IMG/VR virus record: IMGVR_UViG_3300049489_000263
Coordinates: 1 to 52,739 of that record
Length of the DNA: 52,739 nucleotides
Direction: 5' to 3' (one strand)
Source of the DNA: a virus
Taxonomy: Duplodnaviria; Caudoviricetes
The notes below the pieces were generated by a model that searched no databases, was not told where the DNA came from, and was given only the letters and a program-made list of their open reading frames with translations. Below, piece by piece: positions 8,942 through 24,649 of this stretch; the first letter of the stretch is position 1; each line of letters opens with the position of its first letter. The position numbers and the translations under genes were made by a program.

Positions 8942-9016
8942 TACACGGGGAGGGACTCGAACCCTCAAGAAAGCGGCTTCTAAGGCCGCCGCGTTTGCCA
9001 GTTTCGCCGCCCGTGC
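8942..9016 (-). tRNA. tRNA-Leu(TAG) with short variable region, no encoded CCA
   Basis: Acceptor GCACGGG/CCCGTGT, D-loop with TGG, anticodon arm GCGGC-CTTAGAA-GCCGC, T arm GAGGG-TTCGAGT-CCCTC, discriminator A. Confidence 0.85.
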
Positions 9017-12122: not shown

Positions 12123-12903
12123 AGTTCACTCCATGCTTGTCGAGCCATGTTTGGAATCTGTCCATTGCCAAGGGCCTTAATCCGCTCCACCCAATCGGCC
12201 ACCCCATCAGCCAATCGGTCCAGTCCGGGTTCAGTTTGCCACCAAGTTGTTCTGTTAATTGCCTCGCCCCGGCAAGCTGTTTGGAGTCTACTACGCATGG
12301 CGTGTAGAATGTCTCTATGAAACTTTGGAGTCCCCAGCCAGCTTTCTCCGACGCCCCTGGAAAGTTCCTGTTGCCACACACTGTTGGCGTAGGCCAAGAT
12401 CCACATACGTTCGCGCCTCTTGTGTGGGGCCAAGCAATCTCTAGCTTGTAGACATTGCCAAACAGCATCGTACCCGAGTGAGGCAAGGTCGCACAAGACA
12501 AGGTCGAGACCTCTGATTCTGAGCATCGAACTGTTCTCAATGAGAACGAATCTGGGTCGTACCTCACCAATAAGTCTGGCAAACTCTCGCCACAGTCCAC
12601 TAGATTTTCCAGATATTCCAGATCCAGTACCTGCGGAACTGATGTCCTGGCAAGGGAATCCTCCAGATATGATATCCACGCACCTGCTCCATTCTCTCCC
12701 GTGCAGCGTTCGCACGTCGTTCCAGATTGGGAATCTTGGCAGCATTCCGTCAATCTGGCGCTGTAGTAGGACGTTAATGCAGTAGGGATCTGCTTCGCAA
12801 GCGCAGACAATCTCGTGCCCGCTGAGTAGGCTTCCGAGGATGCCTCCGCCAGCGCCGGCGAATAAGTGCATTTCTCGTAATTGTCCGTTACGAAGTGCCA
12901 CAC
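12100..12903 (-). CDS. C5 MTase beta subunit in an overlapping alternative frame (M.EcoHK31I-type)
   Basis: Stop-free 267-codon frame over the alpha gene with WPTPT and LNPDWTDWLMGWPIGW (motif IX-like), which alpha lacks; true start uncertain. Confidence 0.75.
   Translation of the reverse strand: MWHFVTDNYEKCTYSPALAEASSEAYSAGTRLSALAKQIPTALTSYYSARLTECCQDSQSGTTCERCTGENGAGAWISYLEDSLARTSVPQVLDLEYLENLVDCGESLPDLLVRYDPDSFSLRTVRCSESEVSTLSCATLPHSGTMLFGNVYKLEIAWPHTRGANVCGSWPTPTVCGNRNFPGASEKAGWGLQSFIETFYTPCVVDSKQLAGARQLTEQLGGKLNPDWTDWLMGWPIGWSGLRPLAMDRFQTWLDKHGVNYASPNNY
12110..12901 (-). CDS. C5 cytosine DNA methyltransferase, alpha subunit (motifs I-VIII, X)
   Basis: LFAGAGG, GGFPCQDIS, IENS, RERMW, ALGNGQ. 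Confidence 0.92.
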   Translation of the reverse strand: MALRNGQLREMHLFAGAGGGILGSLLSGHEIVCACEADPYCINVLLQRQIDGMLPRFPIWNDVRTLHGREWSRCVDIISGGFPCQDISSAGTGSGISGKSSGLWREFARLIGEVRPRFVLIENSSMLRIRGLDLVLCDLASLGYDAVWQCLQARDCLAPHKRRERMWILAYANSVWQQELSRGVGESWLGTPKFHRDILHAMRSRLQTACRGEAINRTTWWQTEPGLDRLADGVADWVERIKALGNGQIPNMARQAWSELCVT

Positions 12904-13358
12904 TTATCCTCCAGCAACGATTCAGGTATCTCGATCACGGTATCGGCTACAGCACGTAGCTCGCGGGACACTCCACACGCCAATACGACCACCACGGACC
13001 CCATATCACGTAGCCTCCGCACAGCCGGAGCCATATCGCCATCAGCGGATCCAAGCACAATCTTACCCATGCGTGGCGCAAGCATGTCATCATACATCCC
13101 AACATCCCAATCGGCCTTCTGCTTGCCGTTGCTGAAGGTCTTCAGATGCTTGAACTTGGTCTCCCAGCCCTGCTTCTTGAGAGCATGGATGAATGCTTTG
13201 GCCTCGGCACCTGAGTAGGCTCCGTAGGCTACACAACGCGTGAGCGTGCCAAGGTCAAGGCAGAACTCCCGGTACTTGGAGTAGTCCAGGTGCCTGCCAA
13301 ACCGTTTGCGCAAGCAGTAATACATATTTGAGACATCAACGTAGATTCCTAGTTGCAT
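12888..13358 (-). CDS. NYN/LabA (PIN-like) domain protein
   Basis: YVDVSN, KADWDVGM..D, LGSADGDMAP, VSRELRAVAD. Confidence 0.9.
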   Translation of the reverse strand: MQLGIYVDVSNMYYCLRKRFGRHLDYSKYREFCLDLGTLTRCVAYGAYSGAEAKAFIHALKKQGWETKFKHLKTFSNGKQKADWDVGMYDDMLAPRMGKIVLGSADGDMAPAVRRLRDMGSVVVVLACGVSRELRAVADTVIEIPESLLEDKCGTS

Positions 13359-23220: not shown

Positions 23221-23669
23221 CGGGGCTCCAGTAGGAACGTGCGGTCAGGTAGCTCGGTACGTCGATAATCAGCAAACAATCGCTGATCCAGCAGGCCATA
23301 GAGTCTGTTGCAGAAAGCGCGCAAACGCTTATCCTCCTTCGTAGAACCTGATATGGTTAATGCCATCATGTCGGTCAGGCTCCCCGACGCGATGAGCCAC
23401 TTTTCGTACCTGTAGATGCGCAGGTTCGACTTTGTGGCTAAGATATCAAGTATCACAGGGTCATCGTCCAACAGCAAGCCCATATAAAAACAATCAGTCA
23501 GCCTACTTCTGTAGGCTGACTCCATACCTCGTAAGGCCAAGAAAGCGAATGGATCATTGGTTGAGACTCCGATATGGTCAAGTGTCTTGACCGGATTCTC
23601 GATATCATAGGCGGCTGCTTCTGTTTCTAGCAGCCGCCAATTTATTAACGACAAGTGCAGTATATTCAT
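23217..23669 (-). CDS. Hypothetical protein
   Basis: ATGA overlap with helicase; ATG abuts tRNA-like RNA B. Confidence 0.6.
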   Translation of the reverse strand: MNILHLSLINWRLLETEAAAYDIENPVKTLDHIGVSTNDPFAFLALRGMESAYRSRLTDCFYMGLLLDDDPVILDILATKSNLRIYRYEKWLIASGSLTDMMALTISGSTKEDKRLRAFCNRLYGLLDQRLFADYRRTELPDRTFLLEPR

Positions 23670-23783
23670 AAGGCCGACTGGGATTCTAACCCAGATTCCA
23701 CGGTGTGGCCATGGTCCTCCCCACGAAGTGTCTCAGCCCGAATGGGCGTCGTCAGATTTCAACCTGATTGGATGATCGGCCTT
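23670..23783 (-). ncRNA. tRNA-like multi-hairpin RNA B (114 nt)
   Basis: 8-bp terminal stem AAGGCCGA/TCGGCCTT, T-arm-like CTGGG-TTAGAAT-CCCAG, internal hairpins TCAGG/TCTGA, GCCC/GGGC, CCATGG/CCGTGG. Confidence 0.6.
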
Positions 23784-23859
23784 TGGTGGGCGGCGGAGGA
23801 GTCGAACCTCCAGGCTGCTTGGATGCCAATGGACATCAAGCATGCTAACCGTTCCGCCC
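23784..23859 (-). ncRNA. D-arm-less tRNA-like RNA A (76 nt) ending in ACCA
   Basis: GGGCGG/CCGCCC-ACCA acceptor, perfect T arm GGAGG-TTCGACT-CCTCC, one long stem TGCTTGATGTC-CATT-GGCATCCAAGCA, no D stem or standard anticodon loop. Confidence 0.72.
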
Positions 23860-23998
23860 ACAAGCGGCTGATATTGTGTATCAGCCGATGTAGCCCACGT
23901 AGGTGGCTAGCCTTCCAACCGACGGTTTCCCGCCTGTACGTTTCAACTAAGACCAGCCTGTTTCTGCTTACGATGTAGAGGCCAGGCTGGTTCTGTTG

Positions 23999-24649
23999 TC
24001 AGTGAGTCCGACCAGTGTCCTTGGCGTCAGCAGCCTGAACGTCGCTCTCGGGCGGGTTCTGGAACTTCTGCACTTCCTCAACCAGCTTACCCTGTTCGGG
24101 CAGCGGATTGGGCGTCACAGACGACGGGCTGGCCAGGATACCGAACCAAGTGTTCTTGCTGTTCTGGCACTTCTTGGCCTTGAGCGACACGACCTTGCCG
24201 AGGTTCGTCTGGATGTTGCCAGACTCACGACGGTTGGTCTTGCTGCCGCAATACAGTGTGGCGAACGACTTGGCCGAGGCAACCCACACCAGATACTCGG
24301 GACCATACATGCAGCCCGAGTTGACTACGGCGCTATCCTCGACGATCTTCTTGAACGCGGCAGACTGGACATCATGGCTGGTGACGATGTTGTCGTCACC
24401 GATCCGCATGGCCTTGGGCCGCCAGGCACAGACGAGCACATCAACTTCAGCGCCCAGGTCCTGATGCGAAGAATCACGGATCAGAGCGTAGTGGTTGATC
24501 GGGAACTTGCCTTCCTTGCAGACCTCAGATTGCGAGGTCATCAGTTGCAGGCGAGGCAGGAACGCATTGTTGCACGCAGCAGCGGCGAAGTCGTCGGCGC
24601 TGTACTTCTGCGGCAGGGCTTCAGTCAGGGTGGTGAGTTCGTTGGGCAT
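23999..24649 (-). CDS. Putative single-stranded DNA-binding protein
   Basis: FLPRLQL N-terminal strand, beta-rich body, position in replication module, strong codon bias. Confidence 0.55.
   Translation of the reverse strand: MPNELTTLTEALPQKYSADDFAAAACNNAFLPRLQLMTSQSEVCKEGKFPINHYALIRDSSHQDLGAEVDVLVCAWRPKAMRIGDDNIVTSHDVQSAAFKKIVEDSAVVNSGCMYGPEYLVWVASAKSFATLYCGSKTNRRESGNIQTNLGKVVSLKAKKCQNSKNTWFGILASPSSVTPNPLPEQGKLVEEVQKFQNPPESDVQAADAKDTGRTH

Follow-up and report, generated by a model that had tools for sequence, protein, structure and literature searches.

Tandem tRNA-derived, non-decoding RNAs next to a gene start in the replication operon of a freshwater phage: candidate punctuation elements

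tRNA punctuation and t-elements are textbook material for organelles. In animal mitochondrial transcripts, tRNAs abut the coding regions, and their excision leaves mRNAs whose 5' end is at the AUG or adjacent to it and whose translation is leaderless. The tRNA genes of phages are usually interpreted as a codon supply; a more recent view is that they replace host tRNAs which defence systems have destroyed. Non-decoding tRNA-like RNAs excised by tRNA-processing enzymes are exemplified by the stable RNAs species 1 and 2 of phage T4 and by mascRNA from MALAT1; we know of no report that T4 species 1 and 2 abut a start codon. In plant mitochondria, mRNA ends are generated at non-canonical tRNA-like sequences, the t-elements, which guide cleavage by RNase P and RNase Z; one of the reported cases is rps4, whose mRNA begins at position +2 relative to the coding sequence (Forner et al. 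2007, PMC1920247). The subject of the present analysis is a pair of abutting non-canonical tRNA-like RNAs, denoted RNA A and RNA B, on the minus strand of a 52,739-nt viral metagenome record (IMGVR_UViG_3300049489_000263, completeness estimate 58%; the whole of this stretch of DNA is referred to as the window). They are located in the replication operon of a freshwater phage, in the minus-strand order 216-aa open reading frame (ORF), 329-nt non-coding stretch, ORF150 and SNF2-related helicase, and constitute the final 190 nt of the non-coding stretch. Both are derived from tRNA and no longer decode, and it is tentatively suggested below that they act as punctuation elements. A limited search of open-access text found no description of tRNA punctuation or of a t-element arrangement in a phage.

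The two phage RNAs resemble the t-elements in being non-canonical cloverleaves that keep a T-arm motif, and whereas t-elements end at mRNA ends, the phage pair ends, at the DNA level, at a coding start (PMC1920247). The motif GGTTCRANYCC that was used in the screen of that study is present in RNA A (GGTTCGACTCC), and the T loop of RNA B is one base off this motif (GGTTAGAATCC) (PMC1920247). The plant case is an organellar one with experimentally mapped cleavage, whereas the phage locus is known from its sequence (PMC1920247). A further difference is the conserved insert of ~55 nt in RNA B which, together with the invariant linkers, suggests more than a cutting signal. Punctuation in animal mitochondria operates genome-wide and with working decoders, whereas here a single junction and non-decoding elements are involved. 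With phage tRNA and tmRNA genes, RNA A and RNA B share the genomic slot that such genes occupy in relatives, the structure of the top half of the molecule and the head-to-tail tandem arrangement; the dimeric tRNA precursors of phage T4 resemble the way in which the CCA of RNA A abuts the first base of RNA B. The differences from such genes are the lack of a 7-nt anticodon loop in both RNAs, of a D arm in RNA A, the expanded D region of RNA B and the failure of both to pass ARAGORN and Rfam.

Structure and tRNA ancestry of RNA A and RNA B

RNA A (23859–23784, minus strand, 76 nt), delineated by sequence and fold, ends with the discriminator A73 and an encoded CCA (ACCA, 23787–23784). Its acceptor stem consists of six pairs (G1-C72, G2-C71, G3-C70, C4-G69, G5-C68 and G6-C67) followed by an A7.G66 mismatch. 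The T arm is perfect (GGAGG / UUCGACU / CCUCC, 23811–23795), the D arm is replaced by an 11-nt unpaired linker, and the position of the anticodon arm is occupied by a 10-bp hairpin with one bulge and a CAUU cap (23841–23817). The minimum free energy (MFE) of the predicted fold is -34.8 kcal/mol (z = -3.47), a value that was reached by 0 of 200 shuffled sequences.

RNA B (23783–23670, minus strand, 114 nt), delineated by sequence, fold and comparison with a close relative (locus L004, see below), begins at the base right after the CCA of RNA A. It is closed by an 8-bp stem, P1 (23783–23776 with 23677–23670), made up of the seven acceptor pairs and an additional pair between positions -1 and 73; P1 and the T arm (CUGGG / UUAGAAU / CCCAG, 23694–23678) are stacked. 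The inner hairpins are H1 (23767–23752), H2 (23747–23736), a weak H3, and H4 (23714–23698); the latter, with 6 bp and a loop of 5 nt in the window and 6 nt in L004, is found at the position of the anticodon arm. No CCA is encoded, and the MFE is -43.4 kcal/mol (z = -1.95; 6 of 200 shuffles as good). Thus described, RNA B reads as a tRNA with a D-region insert of ~55 nt (H1, H2 and H3), H4 as the anticodon arm and U73 paired to A at position -1.

Standard models do not recognize either molecule. In the whole window, ARAGORN calls a single gene, the tRNA-Leu at 8942–9016, and no tRNA or tmRNA for RNA A or RNA B; this tRNA-Leu is also the only hit of Rfam in the window at gathering thresholds. 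A relaxed Rfam search of 23500–24050 (551 nt) gives no tRNA match at E<=10 and no match to Bacterial Y RNA (YrlA) or other Rfam tRNA-like families; what it returns is CRISPR-DR26, snoR639, mir-724 and beta_tmRNA, all far below threshold, the last one being a partial match over the T arm of RNA A (9.8 bits, E = 0.8, compared with a gathering score of 84). The canonical anticodon arm (5 bp, a 7-nt loop, U33 and a purine at 37) is absent, as RNA A has 10 bp and a 4-nt loop at this position and H4 of RNA B has 6 bp and a 5-nt loop, whereas an acceptor stem stacked on a T arm with a T loop of the UUCRANY type is found in both RNAs. The top half, i.e., acceptor stem and T arm, is the only canonical part of RNA A and RNA B. 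With the anticodon arms closed into long stems with loops of 4–6 nt, these RNAs cannot enter decoding.

Sequence searches point to the origin of RNA B. Its 23-nt stretch of T arm and 3' acceptor strand is identical to that of tRNA-Met(CAT) genes in three unrelated viral contigs (L165–L167), and the T loop UUAGAAU also occurs in tRNA-Met genes called by ARAGORN. The same 23-nt 3' end has 0 exact matches in a genome collection of 185,579 species. With a degenerate 20-nt motif of RNA B, the viral contigs yield the known relative and, besides it, just three tRNA-Met genes of the ordinary kind. A 14-nt motif retrieves at least 119 stretches, which are chance matches given that ARAGORN calls no tRNA in the 119 segments cut around them. 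A covariance model of RNA B, run on the loci that had already been fetched, strongly matches the window and L004 only (140 and 135 bits), all weak matches being ordinary tRNAs, and a metagenome scan with the helicase adds one distant 1.1-kb locus (L169). The short reading frames inside RNA B match neither in frame nor in sequence when the window is compared with L004. RNA B is accordingly a structured, well-constrained RNA without a family assignment and a candidate for a new RNA family.

For RNA A, an exact search with the last 25 nt retrieves nothing from the genome collection and a single match from viral contigs. In this match, which comes from an unrelated contig (L170:9695–9722), identity to RNA A covers the final 28 nt, comprising the T arm, the acceptor strand and the CCA; the fragment stands alone, with no 5' half and no ARAGORN call, and looks like an att-type tRNA fragment. 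No full homologue of the window RNA A was found, so that covariation is not assessable for this RNA. Two other interpretations of the pair were considered and rejected. An attP copy of the 3' half of a host tRNA is at odds with the lack of genome-collection matches for the 3' ends of A (25 nt) and B (23 nt), with the lack of an integrase domain among the 67 window ORFs scanned with Pfam and with the complete 5' strands of both RNAs. A permuted or two-piece tmRNA composed of A and B is at odds with the fact that each RNA closes its own terminal stem, and has no model support.

Sequence and fold agree with the preliminary description of this DNA, made from its letters alone, as far as two abutting non-canonical tRNA-like RNAs on the minus strand and their boundaries are concerned. 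It had also been right on RNA B (start after the CCA, 8-bp stem, T-arm-like hairpin, three to four inner hairpins, end at an ATG) and, for RNA A, on the ACCA, the perfect T arm, the unpaired D region, the CATT-capped stem and G3-C70. The acceptor stem of RNA A has six pairs and an A.G mismatch and not the seven pairs of a tRNA. The characterization of both RNAs as non-canonical tRNA mimics holds, the acceptor/T-arm halves that RNase P recognizes being intact, and the strong match to a standard tRNA or tmRNA model that was named there as the contrary outcome is not produced by ARAGORN or Rfam.

Selection on RNA B, cassette exchange and the junction with ORF150

A search with the helicase yielded at least 459 relatives; the analysis retained the 80 best. 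There is one close relative, contig 3300037851_000332 (loci L002, L004, L005 and L185), whose flanking proteins are 94–95% identical to those of the window phage. Most of the evidence that the structures go beyond chance stems from this comparison. RNA B differs between the window and L004 at ~17% of positions. RNAalifold applied to the two sequences predicts 29 pairs, 5 of them compensatory. For 21 hand-set pairs (P1, H1, H2 and the T stem), pairing is 100% in both sequences with 5 double changes, whereas registers slid by 1–3 columns give 0 double changes and 20–48% pairing, and, among 500 column shuffles, 16 do as well as the real alignment. The distribution of the changes is more telling evidence of selection than the shuffle control. 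Of the 42 stem bases, 10 are changed and all of these are compensated (5 pairs); not one of the 34 linker and T-loop bases is changed; and the hairpin loops vary freely. At 4-fold degenerate sites, the two phages differ by 21% in ORF150, 27% in the 216-aa gene and 50% in the helicase, and even at the lowest of these rates the chance of 34 unchanged bases is about 3e-4 (0.79^34). Given that all stem changes are compensated and that 34 bases are invariant at a neutral divergence of 21–50%, RNA B is not a decaying pseudogene and, judging from these comparisons, is under strong selection on both structure and linkers. The covariation check proposed in the preliminary description, in which decayed pseudo-tRNAs had been the competing possibility, is thereby answered for RNA B only.

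The position of RNA A in L004 is occupied by a different RNA, a cloverleaf whose D arm is normal and whose Rfam tRNA score is 51.3 bits; it has A3-U70 and carries an 11-nt insert in the anticodon loop that forms three extra pairs and a CAUG tetraloop. The junction between the CCA and RNA B is identical in the window and L004, as are the 43 nt just 5' of RNA A (23902–23860), and this combination implies that RNA A was exchanged as a precise cassette. The normal D arm and the score of 51 bits of the L004 counterpart further indicate that the resemblance of RNA A to the tRNA-like domain of tmRNA is not conserved in the slot.

The last base of RNA B, U73, is position 23670, and the ATG of ORF150 (23669–23217, minus strand, 150 aa), at 23669–23667, follows directly. 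That this start is real is indicated by synonymous changes from codon 3 onward (36 codons differ from L004, 28 of them synonymously and 8 non-synonymously, with synonymous changes at codons 3, 4 and 8) and by the alignment of the N-terminus with 24 other family members (25 sequences in all) up to a conserved tryptophan, residue 11. The 20 nt upstream of the ATG, which are the T stem and P1 strand of RNA B, contain no Shine-Dalgarno (SD) sequence; an SD-like 4-mer is present at 38 of 75 starts of the window phage, defined crudely as those of the longest ORFs.

The surroundings of ORF150 were scanned in 116 loci with the helicase N-terminus (several contigs having been fetched twice) for a T arm and acceptor ending <=7 nt before a start of the ORF that precedes the helicase. 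The window, L004/L185 (a single contig), L038 and L226 are positive; a match in L206 involves an internal ATG and was judged spurious. In L038, where the 216-aa gene is 38% identical, a tRNA-like sequence of 72 nt scores 31 bits and has an anticodon arm of 7 bp with a 6-nt loop; its end lies 4 nt ahead of the homologous ATG. In L226, a tRNA of 55 bits, called as Arg(UCG) and containing C33 and U37, also ends 4 nt before the homologous ATG. None of the start-abutting elements (RNA B of the window and those of L004, L038 and L226) encodes a CCA, none of the starts has an SD, and all four elements have closed anticodon arms of 6–7 bp with 5–6-nt loops. In L176, L184 and L219, the tRNA and the start are separated by a spacer of 15–25 nt that carries an SD. 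Comparison of these loci indicates that a tRNA or tRNA-like sequence <=4 nt before an SD-less start of the ORF150 family recurs in three lineages.

The order of the 216-aa gene, the ORF150-family gene and the helicase is conserved in relatives, and the space around the ORF150-family gene is a conserved tRNA/tmRNA slot. ARAGORN finds tRNA or tmRNA genes in 15 of the 40 loci identified via the 216-aa gene; in L176, L219, L184 and L226, the ORF150-family gene is closely preceded by genes for tRNA-Thr, tRNA-Met or tRNA-Arg; and Rfam detects tmRNAs in the slot in L003 (128.5 bits), L014, L019 and L042. The one in L003 (3962–4346) is a full tmRNA in the syntenic slot of a relative that is 100% complete; it has G3.U70 and a tag ending in AKAA and was missed by ARAGORN.

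Several relatives contain tRNA-like sequences of other shapes. L009:2100–2173 (55 bits) has an 8-bp anticodon stem and a UAAG tetraloop; L236:1777–1888 is a 112-nt tRNA-like sequence with a CCA that scores 29.0 bits, exactly the Rfam threshold for tRNA (29 bits); and L232:1323–1380 and L225:675–742 are mini tRNA-like sequences of 58 and 68 nt, respectively. L026:5670–5870 (201 nt, on the contig of L227) combines a normal acceptor, D arm and T arm with an anticodon stem that is a perfect 10-bp helix around an insert of ~120 nt with a second T-arm-like hairpin; ARAGORN does not call it, and Rfam reports merely a 15.8-bit tmRNA fragment. Non-decoding tRNA-like RNAs seem to be common in this phage family.

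A possible punctuation mechanism and competing explanations

The preliminary description had offered several roles for the two RNAs, among them mRNA-processing signals, and it is this option that the comparison favours, with an element <=4 nt before an SD-less start in three lineages. In the reading preferred here, which we hold tentatively and would stop short of calling probable, RNA A and RNA B serve as punctuation for RNase P and RNase Z, similar to organellar t-elements, and release a leaderless or nearly leaderless ORF150-helicase mRNA. Substrate recognition by the tRNA 5' and 3' endonucleases, RNase P and RNase Z, relies on the acceptor/T-arm half, and an encoded CCA protects against RNase Z. 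Transcription of the operon would run through the slot; a consensus scan from the 216-aa gene to ORF150 detects no terminator-like site, and promoter matches are not above shuffle expectation, which is compatible with read-through. Host RNase P would then cut at the 5' end of RNA A, freeing the upstream mRNA with a hairpin-rich trailer, and at the 5' end of RNA B, giving RNA A an exact CCA 3' end. A 3' tRNA endonuclease of the RNase Z type would cut after the discriminator U of RNA B (23670), which has no CCA, and the ORF150-helicase mRNA would start at its own AUG and be translated leaderless. The constraint on the lower half of RNA B suggests that it probably has a second role, such as folding or the binding of a factor.

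Several points weigh against this reading. No RNA sequencing run containing the stretch was found, and we infer co-transcription, the cleavage sites, the enzymes and leaderless translation from the arrangement. The reading also presupposes an RNase Z and efficient leaderless initiation in the host. The shuffle control for RNA B is weak because only two sequences are available and the pairs were derived from one of them. A cutting signal needs the top half only, yet H1 and H2 carry three of the five compensatory pairs and long unpaired stretches are invariant. Punctuation explains neither the tandem arrangement of two elements nor the complete difference in RNA A between phages with nearly identical flanks. 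In L038 and L226, a cut would leave a 3-nt leader and not a strictly leaderless mRNA. Finally, a conserved terminator-like hairpin ~150 nt into ORF150 could end many transcripts before the gene is read.

An alternative is that excised RNA A and/or RNA B are stable, trans-acting tRNA mimics that occupy a tRNA-handling factor of the host, their position before ORF150 being secondary; decoys for anticodon nucleases and binders of SmpB, EF-Tu or a synthetase had been among the roles offered in the preliminary description. Candidate targets would be an anticodon nuclease or another tRNA-targeting defence, SmpB, a synthetase, EF-Tu or a modification enzyme, with the closed anticodon arms making the RNAs uncleavable and undecodable decoys. 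Such a role would account for the constraint on the structure and sequence of the lower half of B beyond the needs of a cutting signal and for the swapping of A as a precise cassette between near-identical flanks, as under diversifying pressure. It also fits the recurrence of closed anticodon hairpins of unrelated sequence (CAUU in A of the window, CAUG in that of L004, 8 bp and UAAG in L009, 7 bp and a 6-nt loop in L038), the presence of CAU at the hairpin tip of both A versions and the CCA encoded by A, which the sole canonical tRNA of the phage does not have. However, no target can be identified; a Pfam scan of 67 ORFs of the window yields no RNA-repair, CCA-adding, SmpB or synthetase-like gene; a decoy role offers no reason for the exact positioning of elements against an SD-less start in three lineages; and the A versions share no bottom-half architecture, one lacking the D arm that is normal in the other, which makes a single shared binding partner unlikely. 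On balance, trans-acting mimicry is considered unlikely as the main role of these RNAs. A combination of the two functions appears somewhat less likely again: RNA B, and possibly the A cassettes, would be founders of a phage family of stable non-decoding tRNA mimics that, within the transcript, direct host processing to the leaderless mRNA of replication genes and, once released, use their lower halves to neutralise a host factor that targets or handles tRNA (e.g., an anticodon nuclease or trans-translation). If true, this would be a case of RNA-level counter-defence embedded in operon punctuation.

The invariant single strands of RNA B would also fit a regulatory leader, i.e., an element that stays uncleaved on the mRNA and controls the translation or stability of ORF150. 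One possible route involves the conserved GGGGAGGACC-AUG within B (AUG at 23713–23711), an SD-like site with a mini-ORF the translation of which would melt the T arm and P1 and allow re-initiation at ORF150; another possible route is protection against decay by the 5' structure. The 14-nt sequence GGGGAGGACCAUGG is identical in the window and L004, and the frames from the internal AUG stop 24 nt and 8 nt, respectively, before the ORF150 ATG. This SD and AUG are only ~3 nt apart, though, the window and L004 encode mini-peptides that agree neither in frame nor in length or sequence, GGAGG and a mini-ORF are missing from the elements of L038 and L226 despite the same arrangement, and a mere leader does not require a canonical top half, the surface recognized by tRNA enzymes, all of which makes a cis-acting leader improbable. 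It is very improbable that A and B are functionless relics of former phage tRNA genes brought next to ORF150 by an accidental deletion. The contents of the slot do vary among relatives, phage tRNA arrays turn over quickly, and RNA A of the window, with no D arm, a mismatch in the acceptor and no tRNA score, has no homologue for a covariation test, the 28-nt 3' fragment in L170 being its sole match. For B, however, decay is contradicted by the 10 stem changes, all compensatory, and the 34 invariant unpaired bases discussed above; RNA A itself keeps a perfect T arm, six of seven acceptor pairs, the CCA and a fold better than that of 200 out of 200 shuffles; and the abutment recurs in L038 and L226.

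The resemblance to tmRNA that had been noted for RNA A raises the possibility of a truncated tmRNA, reduced to the tRNA-like domain with the P2 helix closed by a tetraloop, that would act on trans-translation, e.g., via SmpB. With the tRNA-like domain of tmRNA (RF00023), RNA A shares the acceptor stem, the stemless D region, the long helix in place of the anticodon arm, the T arm and the CCA; genuine tmRNAs occupy the syntenic slot of L003, L014 and L019; and there is the weak beta_tmRNA match over the T arm. Against this, RNA A has G3-C70 instead of the alanine determinant G3.U70 that is present in the L003 tmRNA, and its 76 nt leave no room for an mRNA part with a tag frame or for pseudoknots. 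No tmRNA model matches at threshold and ARAGORN calls no tmRNA (the L003 tmRNA, detected by Rfam, serves as the positive control), the RNA at this position in L004 folds as a cloverleaf tRNA that includes a D arm, and no phage SmpB is found by Pfam among the 67 ORFs. The tmRNAs in the slot of relatives echo the resemblance, but RNA A is not a member of the tmRNA family, and a truncated tmRNA is barely plausible.

Gene neighbourhood and implications

The upstream neighbour is the 216-aa ORF (24649–23999, minus strand, with the TGA stop at 24001–23999), which has homologues in 41 viral loci when used as a query and is 42% identical to its L003 homologue. Pfam, PHROGs and PDB sequence searches give no match for it, and the label 'SSB-like' of the preliminary description could not be verified. 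Its 3' trailer (23860–23998, minus strand) is a series of hairpins directly before RNA A; RNAalifold of the window and L004 predicts 43 pairs in 23998–23860, 3 of which show compensatory double changes. The hairpin that adjoins RNA A, GGCTGATA-CACAA-TATCAGCC, has no U-tract. The whole 341-nt region folds with z = -5.5, and contigs from four DNA sequencing runs compared over 23400–24300 are identical, with zero variants. An antisense ORF on the plus strand (23655–23978, 107 aa) was rejected: the corresponding region of L004 (L004:4806–5000) contains no minus-strand ORF of >=80 aa, this being the strand equivalent to the plus strand of the window, and differs by indels.

ORF150 belongs to a conserved, unannotated phage family whose members (the window and 24 homologues) are always encoded 5' of the helicase and share the motifs NW near the N-terminus, SPTRxLD, SGTL and a C-terminal DxTFxLE. 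Pfam, PHROGs and PDB sequence searches give no match; a Foldseek search of PDB started with the AlphaFold model (pLDDT 90.9) returns weak ThyX-like rows only (best E = 0.012, TM ~0.5). The terminator-like hairpin inside ORF150 (23521–23496, minus strand) is an 11-bp stem followed by GATTGTTTTT. It is contained in a 72-nt run (ORF nt 127–198) free of differences from L004, the longest such run in the three neighbouring genes although the 4-fold sites of ORF150 differ by 21%, and may be an attenuator or an RNA-stability element. The stop codon of ORF150 overlaps the start of the helicase (ATGA), a 646-aa protein (23220–21280, minus strand) that matches Pfam SNF2-rel_dom with E = 7.9e-07.

Elsewhere in the window, the only canonical tRNA, tRNA-Leu(TAG) (8942–9016, minus strand, 52.7 bits), encodes no CCA, and the gene downstream of it, ~40 nt away, has a normal GGGAG ribosome-binding site. 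A 156-aa NYN-domain protein with a PIN-like RNase fold is encoded at 12888–13358 (minus strand; Pfam E = 3.2e-22). This nuclease was considered as a dedicated processing enzyme and dismissed, as it is present in 4 of 5 related records, with or without abutting elements, and hence shows no specific link; the sole record of the five that lacks the gene is merely 20% complete. No integrase domain is found by Pfam in the 67 ORFs.

A blastn search of 23300–24300 against deposited phages gives no match. A helicase search of genome contigs identifies 12 loci, mostly in metagenome-assembled genome (MAG) bins of many phyla, and these relatives are too distant to name a host. Three of the loci, L261 and L262 on one Thermoguttaceae chromosome and L264 on a Pirellulaceae chromosome, are helicase relatives of 30–40% identity in complete MAG chromosomes of Planctomycetota, which hints at integrated relatives and at a possible host range of the wider family.

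With respect to the biology of these phages, the locus suggests a third use of a phage tRNA, in which the body of the molecule is kept only for its processing surface and a replication-gene mRNA acquires its translatable 5' end through the excision. If confirmed, this arrangement would account for a class of genes in viral metagenomes that are labelled 'tRNA-???' or are tRNA-like and go undetected, provide a rule for locating SD-less gene starts in phages and offer a compact natural part for making leaderless mRNAs.

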